Shown here: positions 7,649 to 58,174 of the stretch, piece after piece | Position numbering within the stretch: the stretch's first letter is position 1 | Layout of the letters: each line of letters opens with the position of its first letter | NCBI RefSeq assembly: GCF_018350175.1 | Contig: NC_058368.1 | Coordinates: forward strand, 5,952,001 to 6,016,000 | DNA: 64,000 nt | Direction of reading: 5' to 3' | Source of the DNA: Felis catus | Taxonomy: Eukaryota | Notes under the pieces: generated by a model | What the model saw: only the letters and a program-made list of their open reading frames with translations | Databases searched by the model: none | Told to the model about the DNA's origin: nothing | Program-made: the position numbers and the translations under genes

Positions 7649-7713
7649 CTCGAGTGAGTTTGAATTCAATCGAATACAAGGCATTTTAGCTGATAACAGT
7701 TTACAGGAATATG
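7649..7713 (-). CDS. ATP8A2-like exon (65 nt): (A)[21 protein letters not shown]
   Basis: ctttgtag/ acceptor, GAG/gtaagt donor; YSC-L motif, expected size and phase. Confidence 0.9.
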
Positions 7714-10440: not shown

Positions 10441-10491
<51 letters not shown>

Positions 10492-13400: not shown

Positions 13401-16400
13401 TTCTGCACACCTCAACCCTAAGACACAATCATACAGTAAAGTTAAGGGGGAAAGGGGCAGAAAAAAGTGACATTGGAGCTTGGGGAAAAAACAGCTGAAT
13501 ATTCTAATAATCAAAATATTTAGGAATAAACATATATAATACAAAGATAGGTATACACATCATAGAGAAAATATGCCATAACTTCAGGTTTCCAAGGAAA
13601 GGAACGAGAAACTACATACTACTCATGTCAGCATTCTGCAGTCTCTATTTCAACAATGTGAAGGAGACACAACAGTTTGCTTTGCTTGGTTTGTTTAAAT
13701 TTTTTGCCATGCGATGGCAAGGTTCCACTGCACTCCATTTTCCCCAAAGACATATAAAACAATTACTTGAAGGCAGCTCATTCATTCTTGATACTAGGAT
13801 ATATTTAGAATACCTGTTCAACCAGATTTTTAAAAACTTTGTATCTATTACCTATGTTAATTGCAGTTTCTTGTTTATCTCCTGTCAGGACCCATATTTT
13901 TATGTTTGCGTTCAGTAAAGCTGTTATCGTTTCTGGAACACGTGCTTGAAGGTGATCTTCAATGGCTGTGGCACCAAGCAGCAGAAATTCCTAGACGTTT
14001 TTTTCAAAGGGATATTTTTTATTATTAGTTAAGATAAAAAAATTTTTAAGACGGGATAAATTGGGCAAATTTTGACAAAAGATACGCATTCTACTTATTA
14101 TGTCCCATACCTGTACACACACACATACTTTTTTCTTGTCTCTTCCATTGGTCTGTTTGTCCCTACTTTGTTACAGTATGAGGCAGTGTAGCATGATAGT
14201 TAAAAGCATAGACTCATGGATCCATGTCTTAGCTCTACAAATTACTTCAAGTTATGATCTACAAACGATCAGAAGCACATTACTTAAATTTCCATGCCTT
14301 CATTTCTTCATCTATAACTGGCAAAGTAGGGGGAAAATGACTCAGAGAATTATTGTGAGAGTTAACATTTAGAAAGTGAGAATAGTATCTAACATATTAT
14401 AATTAGGAAATTAGGATTTGAATAGACATTTCTCCAGAGAAGATACACAAATAATCAAAAAACACATGAAAAGATGTTCAATATCATTAAAGAAGTGTAA
14501 ATTAAAATCACAGTGAGATAACTGCTTCGTACCCAGTAGGGTGGCTATACCAAGTTATAGATAGTAACAAGTGTTGGCAAGGATGTGAAAAAATTGGAAC
14601 CCTCATACACTGGTGGTAGGAATGGAGAATAGTGCAGCCATTTTGGAAAACTAGTCTGGCAGCTTCTCAAATGGTTACATGGAGTTGCCATATGACCCAG
14701 CAATTTCATTCTCAGGTATATTCAGGAAATAAAGAATGCCCACATGAAAAATTCCATGAGTGCATACAGAAGCATTATTCACAACAGCCAAGTGGAAACA
14801 ATCCAGATGTCCTTCGACAGAAGAATGGATAAACAATTGTATACCTACACAATGGAATACTATTTGGCACTGAAAATGAATGAGATATTGGTACGTGCTC
14901 CAATATGGATAAATCCTAAAAACATTAAGCTAAATGAAAGAAGCAAGTCACTAATATTTATGATTCCATTTATATGAAATATCCAGAGGAGGTGAATCTA
15001 CACAGACTAAAGGAAATTAGTGCCTGCATGGGGCTGGGCAAGAGAGTAGGAGGGAACCAGAGAGTGAATACTAATAGATATGGGGATTGAGAAGGATGTT
15101 GAAAATATTGTGTTCATTATGGTGATGGTTGCACAATTCTATTGAATATAGATATTATGCAGCTGAATATACTAAAAACTATAGATTGTATACTTTAAAT
15201 GGAGGAATTGTATGGTGTGTGAATTATATCTCAATAAAGATGTTGTATTAAAAAAAGGAATTATTCAAAGGAAATTTGAGGCCAGAGAACCTCAGAATCA
15301 AGTCTAATTCAATCAGCCAATATGTCAGATTCATATTTTACCAATTGAGTGATACTGGTAACACGAAAATTAATTACTTTAGCAGTTACTAAGTTATGAT
15401 GTACTTACTGACTATTGATACAAATGTGGAGATTGTCTCTCTTACTCTTACCCAACAGGAAACAAATTTAAATTTTATGAATGTCCTAAGGAAAAATATT
15501 CAAGAAGAAAAGAAGTGCTACTGGCCACAAGAGCTAGGAATATCAGAAAATCCCTCCCTATAACTGAAAACAAGTAGAGTCATAGCAATGTGCATGGAAT
15601 TATCTATAAGAACCAATTTCACACAACTAGTTGACCCTGACACATCTTTGGTGTTATATTCCAGTAGTTACCAAAAAGTCCATAGAGAGTAGCCATATAA
15701 CTAATTAACATAACATCAGCTGGAACTGTGGAAATTAACACAAGTACCAGGCAGAATATTAGACACTCTTGTAGCTAAAAAAAAAAAAAAAAAAAAAAAA
15801 AGATGTAAAAGATCTGTATGCTGAAAACTATAGAAAACTTATGAAGGAAACTGAAGAAGACACAAAGGAATGGAAAAACTCTCCATGCTCATGGATTGAA
15901 AGAATAAATATTGTTAAAATGTCAATATTACCCAAAGCAATCTACACATTCAATGCAATCCCAATTAAAACTGCACCGGCACTCTTCTCAAAGCTAGAAC
16001 AATCCTAAAATTTTAATGGAACTACAAAAGACCCTGAATAGCCAAAGTAGTATCGAAGAAGAAAACCAAAGTGGGAGGCATCATAATCCCAGACTTTAGC
16101 CTCTACTACAAAGCTGTAATCCTCAAGACAGTATGGTAGTGGCACAGAAACAGACACATAGACCAATGGAATAGAGAACCCAGAATTGGACCCACAAATG
16201 TATGGCCAACTAATCTTTGACAAAGCAGGAAAGAGTATCCAATGGAAAAAAGACAATCTCTTTAGCAAATGGTGCTGGGAGAACTGGAGAGCAACATGCA
16301 GAAAAATGAAACTAGACCACTTTCTTACACCATACACAAAAATAAACTCAAAATGGATGAAGGACCTGAATGCCAGACAGGAAACCATCAATACCCTAGG

Positions 16401-19400
16401 GGAGAAAGCAGGATAAAACCTCTTTGACCTCAGCTGCGGCAATTTCTTACTTGACACATCTCCAAAGGCAAGGGAAATAAAAGCAAAAATGAACTACTGG
16501 GACCTCATCAATATAAAAAAAGTTCTGCACTGCAAAGGGAACAATCAACAAAACTAAAAGGCAACCGATGGAATGGGAAAAGATACTTGCAAATGACATA
16601 TCGGACAAAGGGCTAGTATCCAAAATCTGTAAAGAACTCACCAAACTCCACACCCAAAAAACAAATAATCCAATGAAGAAATGGGCAGAAAACATGAATA
16701 GACACTTTTCCAAAGAAGACATCCAGATGCCACATGAAAAGATGCACAACGTCATTCCTCATCAGGGAAATACAAATCAAAACCACACTGAGATACCACC
16801 TCACGCCAGAGTGGCTAAAATGAACAAATCAAGAGACTATAGATGCTGGAGAGGATGTGGAGAAATGGGAACCCTCTTGCACTGTTGGTGGGAATGCATA
16901 CTGGTGCAGCCACTCTGGAAGACAGTGTGGAGTTTCCTCAAAAAATTAAAAACAGAACTACCCTAAGACCCAGAAATAGCACTGCTAGGTATTTACCCAA
17001 GGGATACAGGAGTACTGATGCATAGGGGCATGTGTACCCCAATGTTTATAGCAGCGCTTTCAACAATAGCCACATTATGGAAAGACCCTAAATGTCTATC
17101 AACTGACAAATGGATAAAGAAGATGTGGTTTATGTACACAATGGAATACTACTTGGCAATGAGAAAGAATGAAATATGGCCTTTTGTACAAAGTGGATGG
17201 ACTGGAGAGTGTTATGCTAAGTGAAATGAGTCAGGCAGAGAAAGACAGATACCATATGTTTCACTCATATGTGGATCTTGAGAAACTTAACAGAAGACCA
17301 TGGGGGAGGAGAAGGGGGAAAAAGTTAGAGAGAAAGAGGCAAACCATAAGAGACTCTTAAATACTGAGAACAAACTGAGGGTTGATGGGGGTTGGGGGGG
17401 AGGGGAAAGTGGGTGATGGGCATTGAGGAGGGTACCTGTTGGGATGTGCACTGGGTGTTGTATGGAAACCAATTTGACAAGAAGTTATATTAAAAATAAT
17501 CAAAACGGGGGCACCCTGGTGGCTCAGTTGGCTGAGTGACCGACTTCAGCTCAGGTCATGATCTTGCAGTTTGTGAGTTAAAGCCCCGTGTCGGGCTCAG
17601 TGCTGACAGCTCGGAGTCTGGAGCCTGCCTCGAATTCTATGTCTCCCCCTCTCTCTATCCCTCCCCTGCTCATGCTCTGTGTCTCTCGGTCTTTCAATAA
17701 TAAATAGACATTAAAAAATTTTTTTTGAATAATCAAAATAAATAAATAAAATTAAAAAATAAACACTGTCTGTTTGCCAGGCACTGTGTACATGCTGGAG
17801 ACCAGCATTCAGCTGATGATTCATCTAATAACATGAAGAAACCAGTCAGCTTGAGGCCACCGCACTCCCTGACCTTGCCACCCATCTCACATAACCTGGG
17901 AAAGGCAAACTTACCTGTTCTTTTTCTTATCCTATGAATTCCTTACTCTTTTCCCACTTATGACTTCCAGACTAAAACTAAAACTAAAATATAAAATACA
18001 TCGGTTTGATTGAAAAATAATTGCATAGTAATACTTGTACAGTCTTTCAAGTGCCAGAGGCCAATTTCAACTGCTCAGATTTCTTCCCGGTGTGTGGGAG
18101 CAACAGACAACTTGCCGGGAACATAAGGAAGAGGAGGGTTACATAAATCAGTCTCCTTGCTGTGCTGCGTCAACAGATGCGGAGTAATCACCTGTGAGGG
18201 TTACTGCAGCACATTCACATAGTTGGTGTGAAGCTAGGTTAGGTTCCTAATCTTTCAACACACAACTTAAAAACAAAAACAAAAACATAGACCCAATGAT
18301 GTCAAGAAAACCCCTGAGTCTAAATCTGCTTTGGCTGTGCTCCTGCTGGAATAAAATGCGGAGTTCATGGAACCAAATGACAAAAGAACCCAAGTCAAGA
18401 AACTAAGATAAGAATGGACCCAGGAGCCACAAGATCCCTGAGGCCACAACAAGCAAATTCACAATGACCCTCGAGTGACACTCAACAGTCCAGGCTGCAA
18501 GAGATCCCCTGGAACAGTAACCACCAGAGAAGAGCACAATAAAATTATACTCATCCATGTAATGAAATACCATGGACTGATCTAAGAAAATAACAGAAGA
18601 ATATTCAGTGATATGGAAAAAATATCCCCAATTTATTGCAAAGTGAAAATTTTCATGATTCAAGCAGTATGTTCATGGGGAAAATTCGATGGAGATTTTT
18701 TTTTGGCGGCAGGGCGGGGCGGGGGGGGGTAGGTTTTTACTTTTAATTTTTATAGGAAAAAATTTGTATGTGTGTATTAAATACCTACAATGGAATACCA
18801 CGCATATATGAAGAAAGAGACTGGAAGATTATACACTAGAACTTAGTCATTAGCCCAACATTACAGATGATGGTTATTTACTATTCCAGCTTATTTTTCT
18901 GTGAAAAACATGTATTTCTTTTGGAATGGGAAAGGTTATTCAAAAAAAAAAAGGGATAACAAGATTGAAGTAATTAGGGTATGATTTGGAAAAGAAAGAA
19001 ATATTTTTAATATTTTACAAGATATATCTTATGAATTTGCAGTACAAAATGTATACTTCCGAAGAAAAAAAAACACAATTTAACTGAGTTTTTAAAATTA
19101 CATCAAAACATGAAAACATCGATGAGTGCATGCTTTCCAAACTTTAACTTGGCCTGTAGCATACACATGGGGTATGTTACCTTTTCGATATGATCGTAAC
19201 ATTCTTCCAAACTCTGCCTTCTGTCCTGTATAACTGTACTTGCTTTTTTATACTCCATCAACCACTGTTGATATTGTTTCTCCGTTAAATCTGTATAGGC
19301 AATACAGAGAGTTCTCAGTCCTGTAAGAAAGAATGGAATACAACCTGATCAAGCCGTCAGTCAGTGATCAGGGAGAAGTAGAGAATTTGAAAACAAATCC

Positions 19401-22400
19401 AAAAGTGTTTTTAGAGGTCATGGGAATGTGAAGTCCTTCACATGGCCCTCCCTGATCTGTCCCTGGCTACCTTACTGATTGATCTTATCTCCTCCCCTCT
19501 TCATTGCTTTCTTACTGGTCCTCTTACCTTCCAAAACTTGCACTTCCTCTGCCCTTGTCCTGGAATCTTTTTCCCTGGAAAGCCACATGGTTCTCCTTCC
19601 CTTTCTTCAGTTTCTGCCTAACTCAGCCTGCAGAGAGAGCAACCATCACGCTCTGTTCCCCTGTCCTGCTGAAATTTTCTCCACAGCACTTGTCACCCCC
19701 CTGACATTATCTATTATTGGCCAATTCCCTCAGGGCATGAGCTGTCTATGTTTTGCTCACTTCTGTCCTGGGAGCTCACAACAGCGCACGGCACTTAATA
19801 AATACTCAATATCTGTTTATTGAAGGAAGGAAAAAATGAACGAGGCTTTAGTTTTTCAATTTCCAAGTAAGTCAAACAATTGTTAAAACAACAGAACATG
19901 AATTTAAATCCCATTTTGTAAAGACTTACTGGGAAAAAAATTAGAAATCATATTTTACTCTAATATTTTAGGCGAACCCCAGAAAAGCATTCAAATAGTT
20001 GGGGATCCCCTAGAAATGAACTCATTACAGATAAACTAAAGAAGTTGTTATATTGTTTTGAGCTCCATTACAATACAGTTCCTATATGCTTCTACCTGTT
20101 GTAACCTGCCTACAGCTCACATCTATTTTAAGATGGAAGTAAAAGGCCCAAAGTGCAACCTTGCAAAATACCAACACTTCTAGGCAAAACACATGGCTTG
20201 GGAAGCAGAAGCTTATAACCTAAAAGGATAAAGGGGGATACAGCTTCCAGGTATTATTAGCTTTACTCTTACATGATATGATACCTTGCTTTTTCAAAAC
20301 TTCTATAAACTTTTTAGTTAGTGTTGTTCTTATTCAAAACTCACTCATGAAATTTTCTTTTTAATTAAAAAAAGTTTTAAGTGTTTATTTATTTTTGAGA
20401 GAGCGAGAAAGAGACAAAGCGTGAGCAGCAGGGAGGGGCAGAGAGAGAGGGAGCCACAGAACTCGAAGCAGGCTCTGGGCTTGAAGCTGTCAGCACAGAG
20501 CCTGAGGAGCTCGAACTCACAAGCTGTGAGATCGCTACCTGAACCAAAGTCAGACACTCAGCCAACTGAGCCACCCAGGCGCCCCCTGAAATTTTATTTC
20601 TTAAGAGATGGGTGATAAGTCAAAATCAGAAGGATAATAAGAGAATGGCAGGAAAACATTGACTGTGTCTGCTTTCTGAGTTATATGTACAAAATAGGTA
20701 ACTTTTTCTCTACTACGGGCCAAGTTCCTAGTACAACAAATAGAAACAGATAATAGATGTCTTTGTAGACACTGCTTTTGGAATAAAGGAAGAACTTCAC
20801 AGTAGAAACATACTTTTTAGTGTTTGCTCATAAGCATAAAACACATGGAGAGAGGAAGAAGGAAAAATAATGTCTCAACAGGGTTTATTTGAAGAACCAT
20901 TTACTTTTAAGCAAACAGAAGGCGTCACAAAGTCACATACATGAATGAGCTCCCCTTGCCAGCCAAGCATCGATGACATACATTCAGTTTATAATTTCAA
21001 TATTTAAGAAGAGCATTTCAAAAGGGAACATCATTCTCAACAATTTTCACTTACCTTCTTTGGCAAAATATTCCAGATGGGTTAATGTCTCCTTCACAAA
21101 GAGAGAGTCATCTGAAAGTCTCTCATAAATCACTGTATCCTATTAAAAAAAAAAAAAAAGTTCCTGTGACTAACATCTTATCTAAGCCTGACAGTCCAAA
21201 TTCTAAATACTGCATTACAATTTTATTGTCATATACAATAGATGTGAGGAACTCAAGCAGTCCCAGGGAAGACACAATTCCAAAGAGGATACATTACATA
21301 CAGAGGAACAGAGGTAACAGACTTTTCACTGAGACAATGCAAGTGATAAGCCAGTAAAGCACAATCTTTAAAGAACTGAAAGAAAAAAAATTGTCAACCT
21401 GGAATCCTATATTCCTCAAAAATTTATTTCAAAATGAAGGTGAGAGAAAATAAAGATGAAATAAAAATATTTTTCAGACATAAACAGGCTGAAAAAACTT
21501 ATTGCCAACAGATGCATGCTATAAGATATGGTAAAGGGAATCTGTCAGAGAGGAGATTATAGCAAATAGAAACATGAGTCTGAAGAGCACTGAAAATGAT
21601 AATGACATGAGTGTGTGTCACACACAGTATTTTTTTTATTTATTTTAACAAGGATAATTGCTTGAGCAAAATTAATAACAATACACTGTGAAGTTTATAA
21701 CATTTATAAAATTAAAATGTCTGACAAGAGCACAAACATTGGGTGGAAACAGATGGAAGTACAGAATTGTAAGGTATATAATCACTCCACGACAGAATGT
21801 AATAAATTAAAGATGCCCACTCTAAGACCTAAAACAACTAATCAAATTTTAAAAAGGAGAGATATAGGAATAAAAAAATACTGAAGTAATTCTTGTCATA
21901 AATGAAAAAAGAACTGGAACAAATAGAAAATAAATGGCAAAATGATGTGTTTAAACCTAGCTGTATCAGTAAGCACATGTAAATGGTTTAATATCCAGTT
22001 AAAAGGCAGAGAATTCCAGGATGGATTAAAGATAAAAACAAAACAAAACAAAACAAAAAACAACCAACTACATGCTTCCTAGAAGAATCGTACTTTAAGT
22101 ATGAAGACACAAATGGGCTAAAAAGAAAGAAAAAAATATACCATAGCAACACTAATCAAAAGAAGCCTGCGATGGCTATGTTATAACCAGACAATAGAGA
22201 ATTCAGAGTGAAGAAAATTGCCAGGGATAAGAAAAATCATTTTGCACTGACAAAAGGGTCAATTTCATCAAGAGGAATTGGCAATCCTGAATGTTTATAC
22301 ACCTAATGACATAGCTTCAAAATGAAGCTTAAACTAATAGAAGCAAATGCAATGAATGAAAAGCTAAAAGAACTTGAAGATGAAAAATCACCATTCAGAC

Positions 22401-24902
22401 ACAATGATATTTGGGGATTTTAATATCCCCCTTTCAATCACTGATAGAACAAGTAGACAGAGTCATCAAGGATATAAAAGATTTGGATGACAGTATCAAC
22501 CAACTTAACTAATAGTTATAAACTACTTTATCCCACAACAACAGAATACTCAGACTTTTTATATGCATACAAAACATTTAACATTTGATAGGTCATAATA
22601 TGAACCATAAAACAAGTTCCAATAAAATAAAGGATTCAAGTTATATAGAGTATGTTCTCTACTAAAACGGAATTATGTTCTAAATCAATTAAAAGAATAG
22701 CTCTAGCAAATGCCCAAATATTTAAAAACACATACTTAAAAAGAACCCATGAGTCAAAGAAGACATCATAACAAAACTTAGAATATTTTGAATGAATGAA
22801 AATGAAAATGCAGCACATAAAAATTTGTGACATTCTGCTAAAGCAATAATTAGGAAATGTATAGGACTAAACATTTGTATTAACAAAGAAAGAAAGAAAG
22901 TTCTCAAATCAAGTTCTGCCTTAAGAAACTATAAAAAGAGGGGCGCCTGGGTGGCGCAGTCGGTTAAGCATCCGACTTCAACCAGGTCACGATCTCGCGG
23001 TCCGTGAGTTCGAGCCCCGCGTCAGGCTCTGGGCTGATGGCTCAGAGCCTGGAGCCTGTTTCCAATTCTGTGTCTCCCTCTCTCTCTGCCCCTCCCCCGT
23101 TCATGCTCTGTCTCTCTCTGTCCCAAAAATAAACATTGAAAAAAAAAATTAAAAAAAAAAAAAAACAAGAAACTATAAAAAGACTGAGGTGTTTGGGTGG
23201 CTCAGTCAGTTGAGCATCCAGCTCTTGATGTTGGCTCAGGTCACGACCCCAGGGTGGTGGAATTGAGCCCCACATTGGGCTCTGCACTAAGCGTGGAGCC
23301 TGCTTAAGATTTTCTCTCTCTCTCTCTCTCTCTCTCTCTTTTCCTCTCTCTCTCTCTCTCCCTCTGCATCTTTCCCTTGCTCACACTCTCTCTCTGTCTT
23401 TAAAATAAAAAATAAAGAAACTAGAAAAAGAGGAGCAAATGAAGCCACAAGTAGGCAAAATAATAGGAATAATAAAGAGTAGAAGCTAATGAAATAGGAA
23501 ACAGAGAAACATTGAAGAAAAATCAAATCTGGAAGCACTTTCTTCAGGAATATCAATAAAACCAATAACTAGCTAGCCTACCATATGATTTCACTCATAT
23601 GTGGAATTTAAGAGATGAAACAGATGAACATATGGGAAGGAAGGGGAAAAGAGAAGAGCGGGAAACAAACCACAAGAGACTCTTAACAACAGAGAACAAA
23701 GTGAGGGTTGATGGAGGGAGGTGGGTGGGGGATGGGCTAAATGGGGGAGGGGCCTTAAGGAGGGCACCTGTTGGGATGAGCACTGGGTGTTGTATGTAAG
23801 TGATGAGTCACGAAATTCTACTCCTAAAACCAATACTACATTCTATGTTAACTAACTAGAATTTAAACAAAATCTTGGAAGAAAATAGGTAAGTAAAAAT
23901 GGAATAATTATGAGTTAAAGAAGCTACACAATAAGTCATCCTATATGACTTACATATATCCTATATGACTTTATATAAAATTTAATAAATGCAAACGAAT
24001 CTGTAGTTGACAGAAAGCAGACTGGTATCAAAACGTATCAAATTATACACTTTAAATAATGTGCAGTTTATTTTACCTCAATAAAGCTGTTTTCTTTCTT
24101 TTTTTTTAATTTTTTAATGTTTTATTTATTTTTGAGACAGAGAGAGAGACAGAGCATGAGCAGGGGAGGGGCAGAGAGAGAGGGAGACACAGAATCGGAA
24201 GCAGCTCCAGGCTCCAAGCTGTCCGCACAGAGCCCGACGCAGGGCTCGAACTCACGGACCGTGAGATCATGACCTGAGCTGAAGTCAGACGCTCAACCGA
24301 CTGAGCCACCCAGGCGCCCTGTAAGCTGTTTTTCTTTTAAGTACATATGGCTGTGAACAAATATATACGTGCTTAAAAAAAAAGGATTTACAGAGGCAAA
24401 GCCATTTCCTGAGATTCACCAAATCCAAGCACTTTGGGCTTGAAATGGGGATCAAAATTCCTGCTCTAAACTCTTAGCATCAACAATCTACTCATTAGTT
24501 CTCAACAGACCAATTGAGTGACAACAAATTTTTCACTGACATTAAAGCTTAATAAACATTCTGGTGTGGATCACCATAAATTTCAATGACTTGAGTCTTG
24601 GGGAAGCTTTGGGGCTACCAAGAAAGGACTTTTCAGCCTTGGCTGATGCTGGCAACGACCAATGGTAACAGCAGATTCAAAGTAACATTGAAAAATAATT
24701 GCGAAGTTGTAAAAGGCTTCCTGCAAGTTGTTGAAACAGAGGGAAGGCGTTAATACGAATGATGAATCATGATACTTACAGCCCCTTTGCAGTACAGCCG
24801 GAGCTTTCCTGTAGGAGTTCGGACAATTACAGACATCCTTTTTCTATTACTAAGACAATATGAAATGCATTATTGGTTTCCATGTTTCTCAGTACATGGT
24901 GC

Positions 24903-24951
<49 letters not shown>

Positions 24952-25154
24952 CCAAGTTAAAAGAATTCTCAGAGTCCTCCGCTGACCATTAGTGAAAAGG
25001 CCAACATGTTTCTTGCCAGCCTCCATTTCTTTTTTCTTTACCTGTTTCTTTAAACTGAGATTCTAATCTAAATCTCCACCTTCTACTACTACTGTTTCTC
25101 AGTTACTATCCTTTTCTTCCATGGAAATTTATTAGCACAAATATATATACATAC

Positions 25155-25186
<32 letters not shown>

Positions 25187-43600: not shown

Positions 43601-46600
43601 GGACCAGGAGGTAAGAAAATAGAAACAGTGAGGGTTGTGTCTCCTTCAAGAAGTCTGACGAAGAAGGCAAGAAAAGGTCATTTGTAGGGTATGCAAAATT
43701 TGACATTTTATCAACACCAAAATGTCAGTGACTTCTGTAAGAATTTATGTCTGTGTCAAAATAATATAATATTCACAGTCTTGGGCTAGGATAAATTAAA
43801 CAAGCACATTTAAGTTGAGATTAATTTTTTGAAATCACTGAAAATCTAAAAGCTTGAGCTAAAAACCATACAAGTAACATTTAGAAACCAAGATTGCATA
43901 GGAATGAATCCATAGTTTTCTGATACAATCTACAAAGTCTGTATCTTGGCTTCTTTAAGATGTTCCCAGACAGATCTGCTCAAGGGAAGTTAGAACAATT
44001 TAAAATCCTCAGTTGATAGATGAGGAAAGTAGAAAGATATGTGACGGTTAATTGTGAAAACATGGAAAGACATAAGCAAAAAAAAAAAAAAAAAAAAAAA
44101 AAAAGACTGAACTTTTAATGGCCAAGTATCAGTTTACATCTTTTACCAACCTTCTGGTCCCCTTCAGGGACCCTTGTCTTCATTTGGGGGGCATCATTCC
44201 TTGTATACAGAGCACTGTACTAACCCCATAAGGTAGGTATTATCCCCATTTTCAAATGAGGGAAGCATTGCTCAGAGAAGTAAAAAGCCTTGCCCCAGTT
44301 CTCCTGGTGACTAAGTGACAAAGCCAAGGACAGAGGCCCTGTGTGTCTGCCTCACTGTCTCATTCCTCTGCCTTGACCCATCTTCTCTCCTTTATTCTGG
44401 AATGCCAAGATTATGTGGCACTGGCAGAACAATCTTAAGAAGGAAACACTCTGTTTCTAAAACTCACTAATCCTCAGTGTCTCAAAAAACCAAAACAAAC
44501 AACAGAAACTGTTCTAACTGTTCTACCAGTCAGAACAAGGGCCTTCCCTTTCAAATAAAAACATGGAAACAAGTGTTTAAAGTCACTTCAAAGCGTTACC
44601 ACTCTTCAAATGGTAGCTTGTCGACACCCTCGGACACTTACCCTTCGTCCCGATGTACCAAATGTCTCCTCCATGCCCTTCCTTCCAGAGTATGGCTCCC
44701 ACACAGCTCACCAAGGACATGGCCAGAAGCAGCAGGAACAACACCAGGATCTGCACGTTGGTCACCTTCTCAACAGTCGATCTCTTGAGAGGCAATTGGA
44801 TGGAATTCTGCACCATAGCGAATGCATACACACCAAAGAGAATGAAAAACAATCAAAGGAATTATAATGCATGAATATTTTTATGGTAAGAGGAGGTCAA
44901 AAATCCCAACAGTTGAAAAGGAGAATATGGTTTTTGCCAAGTAAGTACCAACACTGAAAGCACCATGTTGTTGAATGATGTGGCTTTCCCACTTCAGTCC
45001 TTGAAGCATCTTCTACTTATTCACAGAGAACATATTCACACAGCGGACCTACCACCCCACAGTTCTAGGGTTTTTAAAAAAAGCAAATGTGGGAAATCAC
45101 ACAGTCTAGGTGATCTTCTGTACAGATAAAAGAAAAAAAAAGACTGTACTAATTTATTGGCTTTACTATTTATAGTTATTGAATTATTTCTGGTTTGAAA
45201 ACCATGGAAAGATACCTTTTATCTGAGTCTGTTGGGGAAATATTCAAGATTTTACCAGTACAGGGACACCTGGGTAGCTCAGTCGGTTAAGGGTCCAACT
45301 TCAGCTCAGGTCGTGCATGATCTTGCAGTTTTCACGGGTTTGAGCCCCGCATCAGGGTTTGTGCTGACAGCTCAGAGCCTGGAGGCTGCTTCAGATTCTG
45401 TGTCTCCCTCTTTCTCTGTCCCTCCCCACTCGTGCTCTCTCTCTCTCTCAAAAATAAACATTAAAAAAAATTTTTTTAAAGATTTTACCAGTACAATAAT
45501 TATTCTAACACATGCTTATTTTAGGGACACCAAAGCTCTGGGTTAGGGATACAGGAGAGCTTCAAGTAATAACTTTCTGTTAGCATTTCAAATTTACCCA
45601 TAAATTTCTGATAATTGTCTGCATAGGTCTATTAAAATATTGACAAATAAATGTATATTTAACTTTCTTATATATAACACGTATAATTAGCAAGCATATA
45701 AACAGATATAGGTATTTAACTTTTCAACCATACTTTGCCAGATTAAATTTACCATTTCTACATATTTTTTTAAGTAGGTTTCACACCCAGTGCAGAGCCC
45801 AACATAGGGCTTGAACTCACAACCCCGAGATCAAGACCTGAGCTCAGATCACTAGTCAGACTCTTAAATGACTGAGCCACACTGGTGCCCCTACATTTTT
45901 TTAAGTGTGGAAGCATAAATCCTCAAAGTCTATTAGTAATGAAAATATGAGTTAGTAATCTAAATTACTCAGCTTTTTTACAAAGCACAGGAATAAAAAT
46001 TGAAATCCTAGTTTTAACTGCATTAAGCATATTATTAGAGAACGTCCGTGCATATATGTTTACGTACTATAATTTATATAATATATACATTTATGTATAA
46101 TATCTCCAAAGCAATCATGTCATTCCTTCTCTTTTTTTAACTGGTATAAGTAATGTCTTCAAATGCTATATAATATAGAATAGTTTTCAGCTAAGCGTGT
46201 TGTGCTTAAAACCTCTCAGTAAGGAAATATTTACATTTACTAGTTCTTTCTTTCCTGAAGTTATGAAAAGGCCCACTTTGAGATTTTTGTTATTCTGAAA
46301 TGACCCAATCAGCATGTATAATAAGCAATGATTTATACCCACAAAATAATGTGGAATAGTAGGATGCACCTTCTCATGAGCTGCTGCACAGACTAGCCAC
46401 ACAGGGGAGATAATGGGACATGCTCCTTAAATCAACAGTAGGCATTTAAATTTGAGATTGAATGTTGTATCACCAGCTATACAATTAAGTGATAACAGCA
46501 AGATCATTTGAAGACAACTGAAGTCAGAAGGGTGTAGCGTTTGAGAGTTGTGCGTTTTACAGTTGAATCACAGGTCACGATTATGTGGGTCTATGTTGCC

Positions 46601-48428
46601 CTTGGTTCACTGTCCAGATACAAACTTCTATTTGTGGGTAGACCGTGTCTATATCGCCATCTTCGTCCGGGATTTTTAGTATACAGAGTGTAAGGAACAC
46701 TTACACATTAACGCACTACTGCAGGGTACAATCCCAGGGCAGGAAGAATAAGAGGAAAAAGAAAAGTGAGACAAGAAATCAGGAAGCAAAGAGAGAGTGG
46801 AATGTTACTGACCAGTCATAGCTTTGCAAGAAAATGTACCTAGGGCCCCAGTCACAAGGGCCCCAACTTTCCTCGGACTAGTCTGTCACCATTCCATGCC
46901 TTCTTTCTCTGCCATTTACCCTACAGTCACACTGAGCAGCGCTCCCCAAATGGCCCTTGGACACATGCAAGTCTTGGTCTAGCGCTCTCCCACCTACCGC
47001 GCCTTCATTCTGAACCTCCCCACACCCTTGAAACTTTCATCTGCTCTACTCAGCTTTCAGGTCTCGGTTTACTTACATCGTTCTTCCCCACAACAGCCTC
47101 AATGTCAGGTTGGATGGAGCTCCTATATAAACACACAGCGTCCTACACTTAACCTGCCTTAGTGACCTCTGGCTATTACGTTACCTTGATTGTCTTCCTT
47201 CACAGACCGCAGGTAAGTCGAGGGCAGGAAACAGGCCTTGTGCCCTACTATACCCTACGGTCTTAGCACAGTGTCTGGCATTACACAGGTGCCAAAGGGA
47301 TACTTGTGTAAGCAACAGTCAAAGCCAAATGTTGTATTTTAGCAGATGGAATAACGGGTGGACTTACTGTCAAAGTATTAAGGATAAGAAATGTGCAAAA
47401 CATTCCTGGTCCAAAACAAGTGTTTTGAAGGATGTCCTGAAGGGACAAACTGAAGGGTTCTCGAAAGACAGTGATTGGGAAGAATGGCAAACACAGAACT
47501 TCCAATGTCATTTTGGCCAAAATAATCTTACCACTAATGGGAGCCATGTAGATTAAAATGAAATATGGACCTCCCTTCAAACTTCAGGTTAGTAAACAGA
47601 AATGAGCCTCCTAAATTCAAGAGACATATGATGCTAATCCCCCTCACCTCATAAAAAAGGGAAAAATCTAGAGGCAATACAGTCATCACAAATTATTTTA
47701 CCTGCATGAATTTGGTTTCAGATCCAGTGTAAACAACTATGCCAAGGATCCACCGGGTATTTTTAAGTTGTGTACCTCTTAGCAAGACCTGATCAGGCCC
47801 TACTGCAACAGGGCTAAAAGTAAAGAGCATGTATACATTACCAAAAAGTTTTTTCTTTTCTTTTCACAAAGTGAAGCAAGCCTAGGCTTTCATCTTATAC
47901 ATATTTCTTTTTTGTCGAGTTCAACTTTGGGGGGAAACAGCAACAAAAACAAATGTGTCTTCATACAAGGAGCATGGGGAAAAAATGGTTTTATCATCCA
48001 TTTCTCACTAACCTAAAGGTAAGTTGATTAAAAGTTCTAGAGAAATAATACCTCTCATACCTAGGGTGACTATGAAACTTAATGTCAAGGAAGACTGGGC
48101 AGAGGAATAAATACTTGTGTATTACCAATTTGGTTTTCTATAGAAAAGATTACATGGGGTCATTCAGAGCACACAAAGCAACCTTGGTTTGCCATATTTT
48201 CCTGTCCTCCTCCCCTCTGGCACTGGGCTGACTCACTCACTATATAAAAAAATGCTTCCCGGGCACCTGGGTGACTCAGTCAGTTGAGCATCAGGCTTAG
48301 GCTCAGGACATGATCTCACGGTTCCTGAGTTTGAGCCCCGCGTTGGATTCTGTGCTGACAGCTCAGAGCCTGGAGCCTGCTTCGGATTCTGTGTCTCCCT
48401 CTCTCTGTCCCTCCCCGACTTGTGTTTG

Positions 48429-48468
<40 letters not shown>

Positions 48469-51400
48469 AATAAATAAACATGAAAAACAATGCTTCCATA
48501 AAAGTCTTAAGTGGAAGCTAAGCAGAAGTGGAGCAGAAATTAGGGAAAATCCTTCATCATTATCAAACTGAATTCCTAGTGGCTTCTCTTCTCGGATGAC
48601 TTTCGAAACTTTGTTCTTCCCGCTAACTTAGCCCAAGGGATGTGCCAAGTACTTCTATGCAAAGGGAACTTAGACCTGACTTCTCTAGCCCATCTACAGG
48701 TATACCAATTTTAAAAATGCCATATAGGGGTGCCTGGGTGGCTCAGTCGGTTGAGCAACCGACTTCGGCTCAGGTCATGATCTCACGGTTTGTGAGTTTG
48801 AGCCCTGCGTCAGGCTCTGTGCTGATGGCTCAGAGCCTGGAGCCTGCTTTGGATTCTGTGTGTGTCTCTCTCTCTGTCCCTCTCCCACTCATGCTCTGTC
48901 TGTCTCTGTGTCAGAAATAAATAAACGTTAAAAAAATTTTTTTAAACGCCATACATTTTCCTCCCATATTTAAGAACCTTTTTAACAGTATATTGATGCC
49001 TCCGGTATTTCAAAATCAAGTAAAAAAATGAAAAAACTATTAAACTGAGAGAACAAAAATGGTCATATTTTATGTTCCATTAAAAAAAATGTTCAATAAG
49101 AGAAAAACGATACCTTTTACCATTTAGATACAAGGTTCCAATGAAGGTATTGAAATGACGATTAGGTCCTTCACATTCTATTTTTCCAGAGAGGCTTGAC
49201 AATTGTTCTGTTTGCATTTCAGCTGTTTCTAACAAAGCCTGTAAAATAAAATCAAAGTAAAATTAATATAAAACTTTAATGGCAAAGTTCAGTGTCCTAG
49301 TAGTTAATAAAATTATGAAAATGAGGGTCCAAAATGTATTGCACTTACCAGACAACAAATAAGGTACCTCAAACTTTAACATAAAGTTCGTTAGAAAATT
49401 TTGCCATACGAGTATTTTGCAAATATTTTTAATAAGGTTCAGAGGTAGTAGGAAAGTCAAATTTTCATCATCTCTACATGAAAATAACATTTTTGAAAGT
49501 GTAGTGACTTTAACTAAACATCATGGCATGTTTGATACATTTATAGCTGTAGCTGATGAGGCTGATATCTGGACCACACTTAGAGTGGCAAGGATCTAGA
49601 ATAATGGCTCCAAACTTTTACATACATCAGATGCACCTGCAAGTCTTGTTGAAACACAGATTGCTGAGATTCACCCCCAGGGGGTCTTTTTGTTTGTTTG
49701 TTTTTATTCAGTAGGTCTGAGGTGGAGAGCTAGGATTTGCATTTCCCAAAGGATGCTGATGATGCTGGTCTAGAGAGCATGCCCGGAGAAACACCGATCT
49801 AGAGAATGTCTCATTGCAATAAGCAGACCTCAACTTTACAGAGAGGAAAAGAAGATCATCTTCAGGAGAACAAGAATCAAATTGCCATCTGTCTTTTTTT
49901 AACAGCAATATGAGACACAGGAAGAGAGTGAATTTTTATTTTTAATTATCTAAATAAAAGACCTTTAAATTCAGAATGTTGTATCTTTCCAAATATCAAA
50001 CAAATGTGAAAGTTTAACACAAATATTCTCAGGCACGCAAATGTCTTAGAAGTTTTGACGCTCAGAAACCTACATCGAAACAGTTTGGGATGCACTTCTG
50101 TTAAAAAAAAAGATGCCTTAACAAAAATATGAGAGCACGTTACCAACTGGGAGAAGGCTTTGATGACACGTATAACTGACAAAGAATTGGTATAAAAAAT
50201 ATGGAGGAACCCAAGTGGCTCAGTCAGTGGAGCATCCAGCTTCAGCTCAGGTCATGATCTCACAGTTCCTGAGTTCAAGCCCCACATCGGACTCGCTGTC
50301 AGTGCAGAGGCTGCTTCAGATCCTCTCTCTCCTTCTCTCTGCTCCTCCCCTGCTCATGCTCTCTCTCAAAAATAAATAAAACATTTAAAAATTTTTAAAT
50401 ATTTAAATTTTTTTTTCAACGTTTATTTATTTTTGGGACAGAGAGAGACAGAGCATGAACAGGGGACGGGCAGAGAGAGAGGGAGACACAATCAGAAACA
50501 GGCTCCAGGCTCTGAGCCATCAGTCCAGAGCCTGACGTGGGGCTCGAACTCACGGACCGCGAGATCGTGACCTGGCTGAAGTCGGACGCTTAACCGACTG
50601 CGCCACCCAGGCGCCCCTTAAAAAAAAATTTTTAAATATTTAAAGAAGTCCTATAAACCAATAAAAAGTACAAATATCCCAATAGAAAGATGAATAAACA
50701 ACATGAACAAATATTTCTCAGAAAAAGAAAATATGTATCACCAATAAGCTCAAAAGCAGATGCTCAAGAATGATATATTAATGAATTTAAAAAGAAAAAG
50801 TAGGGGTGCCTGGATGGCTCAGTCGGTTAAGTGTCTGACTTTGGCTCATGTCATGATCTCACGGTTCATGGGTTCAAGCCCCGCATCAGCTCTGTGCTGA
50901 CAGCTCAGAGCCTGGAGCCTGCTTCGGATTCTGTGTCTCCCTCTCTCTCTCTCTGCCCTTCCCCCATTCATGCTCGGTCTCTTTCTCTCAAAAATAAACA
51001 AACATTAAAAGACATTAAAAAGAAAAAAATTGTATCGGGGCGCCTGGGTGGCGCAGTCGGTTAAGCGTCCGACTTCAGCCAGGTCACGATCTCGCAGTCC
51101 GTGAGTTCGAGCCCCGCGTCAGGCTCTGGGCTGATGGCTCAGAGCCTGGAGCCTGTTTCCGATTCTGTGTCTCCCTCTCTCTCTGCCCCTCCCCCGTTCA
51201 TGCTCTGTCTCTCTCTGTCCCAAAAATAAATAAAAAACGTTGAAAAAAAAATTTTAAAAAAATCAAAAAAGAAGAAAAAAATTGTATCAATTGAGGCTGA
51301 GAAAATTAGTAAAAAGTTTAATATGCACTCTAGAAAAATAAAATTCTTAGCAAAACTTTGCAAGGTTGGTGGTTATTTACCAGAATGAAATGCAACTACC

Positions 51401-57400: not shown

Positions 57401-58174
57401 AAATCAGGGGCTTCCTTTCTGAAGCCAAGTGATAAAGCAAAGACTCAATTATTTTATTTATTTTTTATTTTTTATTTTTTGAGAGGAAGAGAGAAAGCAC
57501 ATGAACAGGGGAGAGGGATACAGAATCTTAAGTAGGCTCCACACTCCTCACAGATCCCGACACGGGGCTCAATCCTACAACCCTGGGATCATGACCTGGG
57601 CCAAAACCAAGAGTTGGACACTCAACTGACTGAGCCACTCAGGCACCCAAGACTCAATGATCTTAAAGATCAATGTCTTTTTTCCATTAATAGGAAGTTA
57701 ATTGGAAAACTATCTCCTTCCATTCATAATCACAAGTTACTCTGAAATTCAAATGATAGTTTAAAAAGCAGTGTTATATAAGATCACTCAGAGCTCATTT
57801 AGATTAATAATTATGATATTTATCATAAAGATAGTTATATTACCAAAGCACTAACAAAAATATCCTCAAAACAGCATGCTCAAAGGTATGTTATCCTTTA
57901 TGACCTGAATTTTATGACACTTTTTTCTTACCTAGTTCCTACTTGTTTTTTTTAAAGTACCCTGTAAATAACTGCTGAGGACTCATTACATCTACACCAG
58001 AGTAGTGAGATACTTTTCTTCATGAAAAATAAATAATTGGCACCTGACAAAACTTGACATTGTGAGCTTAAGCATAAAATCAGGATTTAAAAAGGTGTCT
58101 TTACCTGCCGTATTTTTAGGTTTGTCTCCCCATCCAGATTAGATGTTGCAACATAACATGTTGCCTCAGGTTCA
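7649..58174 (-). CDS. Partial multi-exon CDS (17 exons, 541 codons) of an ATP8A2-like P4-ATPase / phospholipid-transporting ATPase IB-like; 5' and 3' ends outside the window
   Basis: Spliced exons 58174-58105, 49238-49114, 47813-47702, 44807-44642, 39198-39071, 38061-37984, 32235-32147, 31899-31858, 31071-30996, 29486-29381, 28783-28701, 27418-27369, 24849-24780, 21139-21055, 19320-19181, 13990-13852, 7713-7649. All are flanked by AG/GT, phases are compatible and there are no stops. Motifs: [61 protein letters not shown]. Confidence 0.95.
8181..8410 (+). mobile_element. SINEC
   Basis: SINEC head and tail. Confidence 0.9.
8431..8619 (-). mobile_element. SINEC
   Basis: Reverse-complement SINEC ending cccaggccccc. 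Confidence 0.9.
8830..9019 (-). mobile_element. SINEC
   Basis: Reverse-complement SINEC ending ggcgcccc. Confidence 0.88.
9278..9962 (+). mobile_element. 5'-truncated carnivore L1 with internal (CA)n
   Basis: ORF2 C-terminus [11 protein letters not shown]...CTPMF; TSD aaaa(g/c)tctccatata at 9262-9276 and 9963-9977. Confidence 0.9.
10218..10424 (+). mobile_element. SINEC_Fc-type SINE
   Basis: Full head and tail; aagctttcag duplicated around the SINE plus microsatellite. Confidence 0.92.
10425..10629 (+). repeat. Compound purine microsatellite (GAAA)n(GGAA)n(GAAAAGAAA)n(GGGA)n
   Basis: Read directly. Confidence 0.97.
10900..11125 (-). mobile_element. MIR relic
   Basis: MIR core tatctccatttt...atgaggaaattgagg. 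Confidence 0.65.
12280..12460 (-). mobile_element. MIR relic
   Basis: cctatgagg...attatccccatcttacagacaagaagaagttga. Confidence 0.6.
12520..13215 (+). mobile_element. L2 3' relic
   Basis: L2-type text ending caatattcattaaatgaacgaatg. Confidence 0.65.
13852..13990 (-). CDS. ATP8A2-like exon (139 nt), P domain: [46 protein letters not shown]
   Basis: ctag/ acceptor, TAG/gtaat donor; GATAIED and LTGDKQETA motifs. Confidence 0.96.
14175..14400 (+). mobile_element. MIR relic
   Basis: gaggcagtgtagcatgatagttaaaagcatagact...ttgtgagagttaa. Confidence 0.65.
14415..15255 (+). mobile_element. Old eutherian L1 3' end (L1MB/L1ME-like)
   Basis: End of ORF2 plus 3' UTR terminating gtgaattatatctcaataaag. 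Confidence 0.8.
15802..17500 (+). mobile_element. 5'-truncated felid L1 (3' part of ORF2 with frameshifts, plus 3' UTR)
   Basis: ORF2 peptides [34 protein letters not shown] in ORFs 16186-17224. Confidence 0.95.
17507..17727 (+). mobile_element. SINEC inserted in the L1 A-tail
   Basis: aataatcaaaa duplicated on both sides. Confidence 0.9.
19181..19320 (-). CDS. ATP8A2-like exon (140 nt): [47 protein letters not shown]
   Basis: tcttacag/ acceptor, AAG/gtaac donor; GLRTL motif. Confidence 0.95.
19430..19840 (+). mobile_element. L2 3' relic
   Basis: Ends actcaatatctgtttattgaaggaagg. Confidence 0.6.
20365..20586 (-). mobile_element. SINEC
   Basis: Reverse-complement SINEC. Confidence 0.9.
21055..21139 (-). 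CDS. ATP8A2-like exon (85 nt): [28 protein letters not shown]
   Basis: T-rich...aatag/ acceptor, AAG/gtaagt donor; D-VIYERL...HLEYFA motif. Confidence 0.95.
22940..23165 (+). mobile_element. Young SINEC_Fc
   Basis: Near-identical to other young copies; TSD aagaaactataaaaaga. Confidence 0.95.
23187..23415 (+). mobile_element. Older SINEC with expanded (CT)n
   Basis: Degenerate SINEC head. Confidence 0.85.
24095..24319 (-). mobile_element. SINEC_Fc-type SINE
   Basis: Reverse-complement SINEC; aagctgtttt duplication. Confidence 0.92.
24780..24849 (-). CDS. ATP8A2-like exon (70 nt): [23 protein letters not shown]
   Basis: tcttag/ acceptor, GCT/gtaagt donor; RKRMSV and CKGA motifs. Confidence 0.96.
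24906..24947 (+). repeat. (CA)n microsatellite
   Basis: About 20 perfect CA units, ~55 nt from the acceptor of the 24780-24849 exon. Confidence 0.97.
25140..25335. repeat. (TA)n / AT-rich low-complexity tract
   Basis: Read directly. Confidence 0.9.
26170..26400 (+). mobile_element. Felid L1 3' UTR fragment
   Basis: actcatatgtggatcttgagaaacttaacagaag...caatttgacaataaa. Confidence 0.88.
26504..26731 (+). mobile_element. Young SINEC_Fc
   Basis: TSD agaaatgctcagatg; CpGs largely intact. Confidence 0.95.
27369..27418 (-). CDS. ATP8A2-like exon (50 nt): [16 protein letters not shown](S)
   Basis: cctatag/ acceptor, AG/gtaagc donor; LEFSS nucleotide-binding Phe. Confidence 0.93.
27568..27585 (-). 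promoter_or_regulatory. Candidate CTCF-binding motif
   Basis: Minus strand TGCCAGAAGAGGGCGCCA closely follows the CTCF core CCASYAGRKGGCRS; unique intronic DNA; no functional data. Confidence 0.45.
28163..28320. repeat. AT-rich palindromic tract with a 39-bp tandem duplication
   Basis: Units 28180-28218 and 28219-28257 differ at one base. Confidence 0.9.
28455..28650 (-). mobile_element. MIR relic
   Basis: attaactcatttagtcctcacaagaaccctgtga...gaaactgggg. Confidence 0.6.
28701..28783 (-). CDS. ATP8A2-like exon (83 nt): [28 protein letters not shown]
   Basis: ttggtag/ acceptor, GCT/gtgagt donor; DEAALV motif. Confidence 0.95.
29381..29486 (-). CDS. ATP8A2-like exon (106 nt): [35 protein letters not shown]
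   Basis: ttttttgtag/ acceptor, CAG/gtaggt donor; CHTVVPE and YQASSP motifs. Confidence 0.96.
30164..30385 (+). mobile_element. SINEC
   Basis: TSD aaaaga(t/c)cactttt. Confidence 0.9.
30704..30925 (-). mobile_element. Young SINEC_Fc
   Basis: TSD gccatatata; two mismatches versus the 26504 copy over the body. Confidence 0.95.
30996..31071 (-). CDS. ATP8A2-like exon (76 nt): [25 protein letters not shown]
   Basis: ttcctcag/ acceptor, CAC/gtaagt donor; F-DP-LL-N-E--H pattern and size of the ATP8A exon. Confidence 0.88.
31207..31520. mobile_element. Non-autonomous Tigger (Tigger2a-like) DNA transposon
   Basis: TA duplications at 31205-6 and 31521-2; terminal inverted repeats cagctgacgcttgaacaaca / tgtggttcaagggtgagctg. 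Confidence 0.85.
31858..31899 (-). CDS. Putative small symmetric exon (42 nt, phase 2-2): (G)[13 protein letters not shown](S)
   Basis: cgttttccctcag/ acceptor, AAG/gtaac donor, open in the required phase; sits where ATP8A1/2 have a ~45-nt exon; no sequence motif support. Confidence 0.7.
32147..32235 (-). CDS. ATP8A2-like exon (89 nt), phosphorylation site: [30 protein letters not shown]
   Basis: tctttag/ acceptor, GG/gtaagt donor; DKTGT encoded at 32217-32203. Confidence 0.97.
32590..35150 (+). mobile_element. L1 (RT domain to 3' UTR), degenerate, with (CA)n at 34621-34661
   Basis: ORF2 peptides [29 protein letters not shown] and KWDYIKLK; tail atactcaataaaaaaag. Confidence 0.92.
35170..36270 (-). 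mobile_element. Old L1 3' end (L1MB-like)
   Basis: Antisense 3' UTR and ORF2 end ([15 protein letters not shown]). Confidence 0.8.
35662..35877 (+). mobile_element. Young SINEC_Fc
   Basis: TSD agaacatgtgtgtata. Confidence 0.95.
36325..36543 (-). mobile_element. SINEC
   Basis: Reverse-complement SINEC. Confidence 0.9.
36930..37155 (-). mobile_element. MIR relic
   Basis: attacagatgaggaatcaagg core. Confidence 0.65.
37984..38061 (-). CDS. ATP8A2-like exon (78 nt): [26 protein letters not shown]
   Basis: ttgcag/ acceptor, CAG/gtgagg donor; [12 protein letters not shown] motif; overlaps ORF 37927..38112(-). Confidence 0.96.
39071..39198 (-). CDS. ATP8A2-like exon (128 nt), TM4: [43 protein letters not shown]
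   Basis: ttccacag/ acceptor, TGG/gtgagt donor; PISL motif of P4-ATPases. Confidence 0.96.
39340..40115 (-). mobile_element. 5'-truncated felid L1, sense to the gene
   Basis: ORF 39516..40112(-) is the ORF2 C-terminus ([29 protein letters not shown]). Confidence 0.95.
41820..42440 (+). mobile_element. MER58-like hAT relic carrying two tandem SINECs (41914-42105, 42110-42354)
   Basis: actactcaactctgctgttgtagc...ataaaactttatttacaaaaac; gaaag(t/c)aatcacatgtaa duplicated around the SINE pair. Confidence 0.75.
43258..43478 (+). mobile_element. SINEC
   Basis: TSD tcagaagagggtgg. Confidence 0.9.
44642..44807 (-). CDS. ATP8A2-like exon (166 nt), TM3: [55 protein letters not shown]
   Basis: gcag/ acceptor, G/gtaagt donor; overlaps ORF 44583..44852(-); [18 protein letters not shown] is ATP8A2-like. 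Confidence 0.95.
45263..45479 (+). mobile_element. SINEC
   Basis: TSD agattttaccagtaca. Confidence 0.92.
45765..45891 (-). mobile_element. Short SINEC
   Basis: Reverse-complement head only. Confidence 0.8.
47702..47813 (-). CDS. ATP8A2-like exon (112 nt): [37 protein letters not shown]
   Basis: cttttag/ acceptor, CAG/gtaa donor; LLRG-L-NT and VYTG-ETK motifs. Confidence 0.95.
48260..48486 (+). mobile_element. SINEC
   Basis: TSD aatgcttcc. Confidence 0.9.
48727..48944 (+). mobile_element. SINEC
   Basis: Full head and tail. Confidence 0.9.
49114..49238 (-). CDS. ATP8A2-like exon (125 nt): [42 protein letters not shown]
   Basis: ttttacag/ acceptor, AAG/gtat donor; IECEGPNRH motif of ATP8A proteins. 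Confidence 0.93.
49600..49805. mobile_element. MER5A-like hAT relic
   Basis: acacagattgctg...attcagtaggtctgaggtgg...atttgcatttc...gatgctggtc. Confidence 0.7.
50205..51270. mobile_element. Cluster of four SINECs: 50205-50395(+), 50408-50617(-), 50803-51028(+), 51037-51270(+)
   Basis: Four SINEC heads; the second and fourth are the young SINEC_Fc type. Confidence 0.92.
51715..57160 (-). mobile_element. Long degenerate old L1 (L1MC/L1MD-like) with a SINEC at 55331-55550(-)
   Basis: Continuous T-rich antisense L1 from the ORF2 end towards the 5' region; SINE TSD tgacctccatgggtctt. Confidence 0.8.
57451..57648 (-). mobile_element. SINEC
   Basis: TSD aagactcaat. Confidence 0.88.
58105..58174 (-). 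CDS. ATP8A2-like exon (70 nt), A domain: [23 protein letters not shown]
   Basis: ttag/ acceptor, CAG/gtaa donor; P4-ATPase DGET dephosphorylation motif. Confidence 0.95.

Follow-up and report, generated by a model that had tools for sequence, protein, structure and literature searches.

In the passages of the literature cited here, 14 P4-ATPases are counted in human and 15 in mouse (PMC3645723, PMC11775268, PMC11750469). The closest described systems are the two class-1a members. ATP8A2 (ATPase IB) is a flippase of phosphatidylserine (PS) and phosphatidylethanolamine (PE) that works with CDC50A; its residue N359 is described as important for lipid affinity (PMC4937031). ATP8A1 (ATPase IA) has been solved with CDC50A (PDB 6k7g-6k7n); we take its residue roles from PMC11225554, in which N352 anchors the lipid headgroup in the E2P state, and a glutamine in transmembrane helix M1 is described as reading the PS carboxyl (PMC12424579). 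A precedent for a lineage-restricted, little-studied P4-ATPase missing in human is ATP8B5/FetA, the "fifteenth" mouse P4-ATPase and a human pseudogene (PMC4937031, PMC11750469, PMC3645723). Here we analyse a gene of the cat, Felis catus, whose central exons lie in a 64,000-nucleotide (nt) stretch of contig NC_058368.1 (C1:5952001-6016000, hereafter the window). In our judgement it is quite probably an intact third class-1a P4-ATPase gene, which arose as an inverted neighbour duplicate of ATP8A2 on the placental stem and encodes a likely lipid flippase with an altered groove.

P4-ATPase peptides were seen on the minus strand of the window in a listing of stop-to-stop open reading frames (ORFs). 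The first protein query, a single variable exon of the linker between the N- and P-domains (coding exon 21 in Table 1), gave 37 proteins from 45 candidates, all from Carnivora and nearly all named "phospholipid-transporting ATPase IB-like". The exons were mapped by tblastn of the F. catus protein of that RefSeq name, isoform X3 (P0004), and then by exact threading, junction by junction. Seventeen coding exons run on the minus strand from window position 58174 down to 7649 and add up to 1624 nt, or 541 stop-free codons. Each of the 16 internal junctions is GT-AG, an AG acceptor precedes the first exon and a GT donor follows the last, and the spliced peptide matches residues 154-694 of P0004 with 0 mismatches. 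These exons are coding exons 7-23 of 36 and cover the A-domain, helices M3 and M4, the phosphorylation site, the N-domain and the beginning of the P-domain. The original prediction, made from the letters of the window, had described the same 17 GT-AG exons and 541 open codons at the same coordinates, and the threading reproduced them exactly; the catalytic motifs that it had placed in the window are all present in the spliced peptide ([21 protein letters not shown] and TGDKQETA).

Flanking DNA was added to the window in order to thread the whole gene, which spans ~194 kb and ends in a TAG codon. Exact threading resolves isoforms X3 (P0004) and X4 (P0003) into 35 coding exons apiece, every intron being GT-AG, and the union of their exons gives 36 coding exons, 35 GT-AG introns and 1144 open codons up to the TAG. 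The frame is thus open also in the exons outside the window, to which the original prediction had pointed as a place where stops might lie. Isoform X1 of leopard and of tiger is likewise 1144 amino acids (aa) long. The two cat isoforms each skip one exon in frame: X3 a 111-nt exon coding for M5 (YCFYKN), and X4 a 123-nt exon coding for M6. Both exons are intact in the cat genome, and the skips are either real splice forms or artefacts of automatic gene models. A P4-ATPase has ten transmembrane helices, and each of these two products would be one helix short. Pfam domains scored above cut-off are PhoLip_ATPase_N (PF16209, 83.5 bits), E1-E2_ATPase, Cation_ATPase and PhoLip_ATPase_C (PF16212, 183-224 bits), and the best solved relative is human ATP8A1 (PDB 6k7g, 1393 bits, query 10-817). 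The protein carries (i) the features of a P-type ATPase, i.e., the phosphorylated Asp in DKTGT(L/I)T, the DGET loop, TGDK and GDGxND, and (ii) those of a P4-ATPase, i.e., PISL in M4 with the gate Ile after the Pro, together with the two PhoLip domains. DGET and TGDK are encoded inside the window and GDGAND outside it.

Identities were computed over the 541 columns of the window with the cat peptide as reference. The cat protein is 68.2% identical to tiger ATP8A2, 68.4% to orangutan ATP8A2 and 59.1% to otter ATP8A1; the values are 85.1% for the paralog of jackal and 77.6% for that of elephant. The true ATP8A2 proteins of tiger and orangutan are 96.9% identical over the same columns; in the full-length search described below, the paralogs of cat and tiger are 98% identical. 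A one-to-one ortholog of ATP8A2 would sit in the ATP8A2 position with >90% identity among placentals; the cat gene stands at 68%, and the true ATP8A2 lies elsewhere on the same chromosome. The gene is therefore separate from ATP8A2 and from ATP8A1, with ATP8A2 as its closest paralog. The identity of about two-thirds and the ATP8A2-type rather than ATP8A1-type character that had been proposed are both borne out. It had also been proposed that the exon sizes agree with those of ATP8A2; this stands for the LGATAIED exon, the only one compared for size, which measures 139 nt and has identical phases in all three genes, i.e., the paralog, true ATP8A2 (L002) and ATP8A1 (L003). The paralog shares with ATP8A2, its parent gene and chromosomal neighbour, the common motifs ([40 protein letters not shown]), LQQ in M1 and a C-terminal GYAFS, whose role we take from PMC11750469; however, it is only 66-68% identical to ATP8A2 of the same lineage, and 57-59% identical to ATP8A1.

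A full-length search scored 8000 candidates, and the statements on distribution refer to the best 120 of these 8000. Among them, paralog-type proteins are 65-98% identical to the cat paralog and true ATP8A2 proteins 60-65%. The paralogs come from Carnivora, Artiodactyla, Eulipotyphla, Lagomorpha, strepsirrhine primates, several non-muroid rodents, Xenarthra and Afrotheria, and the name "ATPase IB-like", which had been foreseen as the automatic annotation, is exactly what felids and many other placentals carry. No paralog from haplorhine primates, muroid rodents, bats, cetaceans, horses or marsupials was found among the best 120 of 8000, which suggests gene loss in human, mouse and other lineages. 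In contrast to ATP8A2, the paralog is thus confined to placentals, several of which appear to lack it; it also differs from ATP8B5, which is of class 1b, present in mouse and reported to be testis-expressed, whereas the paralog is of class 1a with none from muroids among these matches. One candidate paralog was rejected: a protein of the bat Molossus (P0100, 67% identity), which the tree places with true ATP8A2. A separate observation concerns P0063, an 1185-aa paralog-type protein from a metagenome-type source (metaclust) that groups with the anteater Tamandua and has no DKTGTLT, GDGAND or FYKN; because an ORF of such length is contiguous, it points to a spliced xenarthran transcript that may be misassembled.

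A tree was built from 61 rows (54 of the best 120, six of 120 ATP8A1 matches and a scorpion ATP8A) and 1144 columns under LG+C20+F+G4, with a quick search and supports from the Shimodaira-Hasegawa-like approximate likelihood ratio test (SH-aLRT). The 33 paralogs, named "IB-like", represent Afrotheria, Xenarthra, Euarchontoglires and Laurasiatheria and fall into a single clade (SH-aLRT 100, stem 0.43), within which the branching follows the species tree. This clade lies inside the ATP8A clade, nested in vertebrate ATP8A2, with ATP8A1 and the scorpion ATP8A outside. It is sister to the 10 placental ATP8A2 proteins (SH-aLRT 84), and the two groups are jointly supported at 100, inside mammals and above marsupials and platypus. 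A 27-row subset gave the same result, and in this subset forcing placental and marsupial ATP8A2 together, with the paralogs outside, cost 44.5 log-likelihood units (approximately unbiased (AU) test, p 0.0085). Because of this tree position and of the rejection of an older placement by the AU test, the sequences date the duplication to the placental stem. It is improbable that the duplication took place before placentals, in therians or amniotes, and that early gene conversion or the long stem has produced the tree position as an artefact. The two genes are neighbours, which makes conversion possible, the stem of the paralogs is long (0.43-0.5 in the two trees), and the sister relation to placental ATP8A2 has an SH-aLRT of only 84; however, the node that unites both above the marsupials has a support of 100 in both trees, the AU test speaks against the older placement, and a long branch would be drawn outwards and not into Eutheria. 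Moreover, opossum, Tasmanian devil and platypus have only one ATP8A2-type protein each among the best 120.

We compared conservation in the paralogs with that in ATP8A1 and ATP8A2. Among 36 paralog models, DGET and TGDKxET are present in 36, PISL, DKTGTLT, KGAD and GDGAND in 35, FYKN and LQQI in 33 and G[YF]AFS in 28; the tenrec paralog has PISV for PISL. Of the columns that are invariant in 27 vertebrate ATP8A1/2 proteins, 316/528 are also invariant in 31 paralogs, vs 68/559 of the variable columns, and site constraint in the two sets is correlated (Spearman rho 0.64). The crown-to-tip length of the paralogs (0.312) is 5.5 times that of placental ATP8A2 (0.057). As the substitutions are non-random, the catalytic motifs are kept and 1144 codons are open in the cat, the protein comparison shows clear purifying selection, weaker than that on ATP8A2. 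The tiger and pika paralogs are 74.6% identical; with the neutral rate taken as ~2.2e-9 per site per year, this roughly suggests a ratio of nonsynonymous to synonymous substitution rates (dN/dS) near 0.3, a value that is inferred and not measured. The proposal of an old, intron-preserving and still-coding duplicate of ATP8A2 therefore agrees with the separate ATP8A2 locus, with the tree and with the open codons.

The sites at which the paralogs depart as a group were counted in 32 paralog rows, after the removal of four that were redundant or odd. Of the 528 invariant ATP8A1/2 columns, 422 are kept in at least 90% of the paralogs, 83 vary and 23 have a different residue throughout the clade. 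Ten of these 23 fixed changes fall within the 71 invariant columns of M1, M2, M4 and M6, vs 13 within the 457 columns elsewhere (odds ratio 5.6, Fisher p 2.8e-4). The most informative of them is in M4, where YNNLIPISL of ATP8A2 and FNNLIPISL of ATP8A1 are replaced by YHNLIPISL in 35/36 paralogs: the second residue, Asn in 27/27 ATP8A1/2 proteins, corresponds to N352 of ATP8A1 and N359 of ATP8A2. The star-nosed mole (Condylura cristata, P0045) is the sole paralog that keeps the Asn (YNNLIPIS), by either reversal or gene conversion from ATP8A2. The rest of the entry gate is kept, i.e., the M1 Gln (ATP8A1 Q88; LQQI in 33/36) and the Thr-Thr pair of M2 (T100/T101), so that, within the class-1a residue set, the M4 Asn is the one pocket residue that departs. 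Further changes in the paralogs, in ATP8A1 numbering, are N343D, T346V, L86I and A902S. Because the fixed changes cluster in the groove and include the Asn-to-His change of M4, lipid preference or affinity has probably shifted.

The following scheme would account for these data. ATP8A2 would have been copied in stem placentals as an inverted neighbour, flanked on one side by a Shisa-domain gene, SHISA2 from its position, and on the other by an RNF6-like RING gene, and all four placental superorders would have received the copy by vertical descent. The product of the copy is predicted to act as the catalytic subunit (alpha) of a lipid flippase that is driven by ATP and follows the ordinary P4 cycle: the Asp of DKTGT would be autophosphorylated, and lipid binding in the M1-M2-M4-M6 groove would trigger dephosphorylation by the DGET loop. 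The C-terminal GYAFS tail may be autoinhibitory, and the protein probably pairs with a CDC50 beta-subunit. In this enzyme the entry gate would be remodelled, the M4 anchor having changed from Asn to His and the PS-selective M1 Gln having been kept. We infer flippase activity, CDC50 dependence and altered specificity from sequence. As for expression, the last coding exon with its 3' flank is contained in 20 sequencing runs from 11 studies; five of these runs are labelled RNA, four being gut metatranscriptomes of one study (shares 0.43-0.86) and one coming from another study (0.40). The gut metatranscriptome runs with the 3' end are only a lead on the tissue.

Several points weigh against an intact and constrained flippase gene. 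Constraint is much relaxed, the crown evolving at 5.5 times the rate of ATP8A2 and the stem being 11 times longer, and the evidence for selection is a comparison at the protein level. GYAFS is missing in 8/36 paralog models, which may be a matter of gene models, and some annotated products, X3 without M5 and X4 without M6, would be non-functional. The gene is known here from genomic sequence and gene models, and the RNA-labelled runs may carry DNA. On the statistical side, the groove windows of the enrichment test were set post hoc and the group for the AU test was chosen after the tree was seen; the losses rest only on absence from the best 120 of 8000. Some of these points would also fit a gene that is decaying into a pseudogene in the cat lineage, expressed or silent and kept open by inertia: fast evolution, isoforms that drop M5 or M6, a case built on DNA and gene models, and the apparent loss in several mammalian groups. 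We regard such decay as unlikely. The cat gene retains 1144 open codons and 35 GT-AG introns, it is 98% identical to that of tiger, and the catalytic motifs persist in 33-36 of 36 models from species that have been apart since the placental radiation; substitutions avoid the sites invariant in ATP8A1/2, and none of the RefSeq names among the matches listed is flagged "LOW QUALITY PROTEIN".

The last alternative, that the window contains no more than the cat's own ATP8A2 (or ATP8A1) ortholog and that the original prediction had put the identity too low, could appeal to the ATP8A2-like diagnostic strings and the automatic name "IB-like", yet it is next to impossible and is refuted by a separate gene at C1:5.26-5.764 Mb that matches tiger ATP8A2 at 85-100% per exon, by the location of ATP8A1 on C11, by the 68% and 59% identities to these two proteins and by the distinct paralog clade with its support of 100. 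We thus retain a third gene beside ATP8A2. As shown in Table 1, ATP8A2 and the paralog are on opposite strands with their 3' ends facing, ~78 kb apart, and a Shisa-domain gene lies between them; an ORF of the RING-H2 type lies upstream of the paralog on the same strand.

Table 1. Coding exons in the window (window positions) and features of the surrounding contigs (C1 and C11 positions)
Feature	Position	Strand	Remarks
Coding exon 7	58105..58174	-	70 nt; A-domain, LDGET; AG acceptor, GT donor; matches P0004 from residue 154
Coding exon 8	49114..49238	-	125 nt; GT-AG, 0 mismatches
Coding exon 9	47702..47813	-	112 nt; exact threading
Coding exon 10	44642..44807	-	166 nt; [19 protein letters not shown], helix M3
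Coding exon 11	39071..39198	-	128 nt; helix M4 YHNLIPISL, His for headgroup-anchoring Asn
Coding exon 12	37984..38061	-	78 nt; exact threading
Coding exon 13	32147..32235	-	89 nt; phosphorylation motif FSDKTGTLT
Coding exon 14	31858..31899	-	42 nt; exact threading
Coding exon 15	30996..31071	-	76 nt; exact threading
Coding exon 16	29381..29486	-	106 nt; N-domain
Coding exon 17	28701..28783	-	83 nt; exact threading
Coding exon 18	27369..27418	-	50 nt; exact threading
Coding exon 19	24780..24849	-	70 nt; 3' end encodes CKGA of KGAD motif
Coding exon 20	21055..21139	-	85 nt; exact threading
Coding exon 21	19181..19320	-	140 nt; variable N-/P-domain linker
Coding exon 22	13852..13990	-	139 nt; LGATAIED...[11 protein letters not shown]
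Coding exon 23	7649..7713	-	65 nt; exact threading
Microsatellite, (AAAG/GAAG)n	10423-10632		intronic, ~50 units
Repeat	41920-42275		196-nt unit x1.8
Rfam tRNA match	20499-20580		30.7 bits
Rfam tRNA match	24231-24315		29.1 bits
ORFs of 85-162 aa	~16005-17230	both	within intron
True ATP8A2	C1:5259576-5764334	+	tiger ATP8A2 maps at 85-100% per exon
Shisa_N domain gene	C1:5787878-5788045	-	Pfam family search of genome
Paralog, whole gene	C1:5843022-6035661	-	exact threading; TAG after 5843022
M6 exon	C1:5909435-5909557	-	123 nt; skipped in X4
M5 exon	C1:5935167-5935277	-	111 nt; skipped in X3
First coding exon	C1:6035561-6035661	-	predicted start MGCQHS
RING-H2 ORF	C1:6091179-6092960	-	594 aa; nearest clusters: RING E3 ligases from chordates, 667-748 aa
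ATP8A1	C11:169.5 Mb	+ (matched exons)	own Shisa gene at 169.60 Mb
Shisa_N gene at ATP8A1	C11:169603886-169604053

The paralog model of the stoat (Mustela erminea, P0036) goes by the name "E3 ubiquitin-protein ligase RNF6 isoform X2"; read-through between it and the RING gene upstream, or a merger of the two models, is the probable cause. A cattle paper places ATP8A2, SHISA2 and RNF6 within one interval, and the part of it cited here does not name the paralog (PMC8520274). From the RING-H2 clusters, the stoat model and the cattle interval we read the gene order as ATP8A2, SHISA2, paralog and RNF6, where SHISA2 and RNF6 are names assigned from domain and position. Since a Shisa_N gene adjoins ATP8A1 as well as ATP8A2, the pairing of ATP8A and Shisa genes looks older than the split between ATP8A1 and ATP8A2.

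Some further features of the locus were observed. The predicted start of the cat protein is MGCQHS, and many paralog models start with MG(C/W)xxS, which resembles an N-myristoylation signal (with Cys palmitoylation); the aligned start Met of ATP8A2 is followed by Ser, and some paralog models extend further upstream, so that the true start is uncertain. Within the introns, the microsatellite was read as poly-KE/RK ORFs in the ORF listing, and the 196-nt repeat looks like a carnivore tRNA-derived short interspersed nuclear element (SINE). The two Rfam tRNA matches are borderline (gathering score 29) and would be SINE heads and not genes. The intronic ORFs on both strands resemble fragments of LINE-1 ORF2.

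It had also been suggested that one of the human ATP8A2 pseudogene loci could be the decayed ortholog. This is so far unsupported: in the excerpts cited, ATP8A2P1 is placed at human chr10:37.5 Mb (PMC3974860) and ATP8A2P2 appears beside N4BP2L2 in a table of a genome-wide association study (PMC10527262), and neither is shown within the SHISA2-RNF6 interval. Among papers mentioning ATP8A2P1-3, none concerns the paralog. A search of the literature by name, supplements being outside its reach, found no paper on the gene, in line with the expectation that it would be functionally uncharacterised. It is a real, intact and unstudied addition to a known family that is already in databases under an automatic name, and no new kind of system.

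The wider reading is tentative. Placentals might for the most part carry a functionally distinct "ATP8A3"-like flippase, lost in human, mouse and some further lineages, that in a certain tissue flips another lipid, or flips PS/PE with changed affinity or pH dependence; on this reading the canonical list of P4-ATPases would stop at 14 or 15 because human and mouse have lost the gene. The paralog would extend the P4-ATPase set in cat, dog, pig, sheep, cattle, rabbit, elephant and others. An unrecognised neighbour of ATP8A2 may confound veterinary and large-animal work on flippases, such as ATP8A2 disease models and the mapping of expression in livestock. In cattle, "ATP8A2-Liver" is listed as an expression-linked gene (PMC8520274), and the tissues given for ATP8A2 in the section of the review cited are the cerebellum, testis and retina as well as the spinal cord, liver not being among them (PMC11750469); reads of the paralog may possibly have been assigned to ATP8A2. 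For the family, the gene would offer a natural experiment on the entry gate, in which the headgroup-anchoring Asn is changed to His and the PS-selective Gln is kept, and a clean case in which an inverted duplicate arose next to its parent and then underwent a burst of change and, as the distribution suggests, repeated lineage-specific loss.

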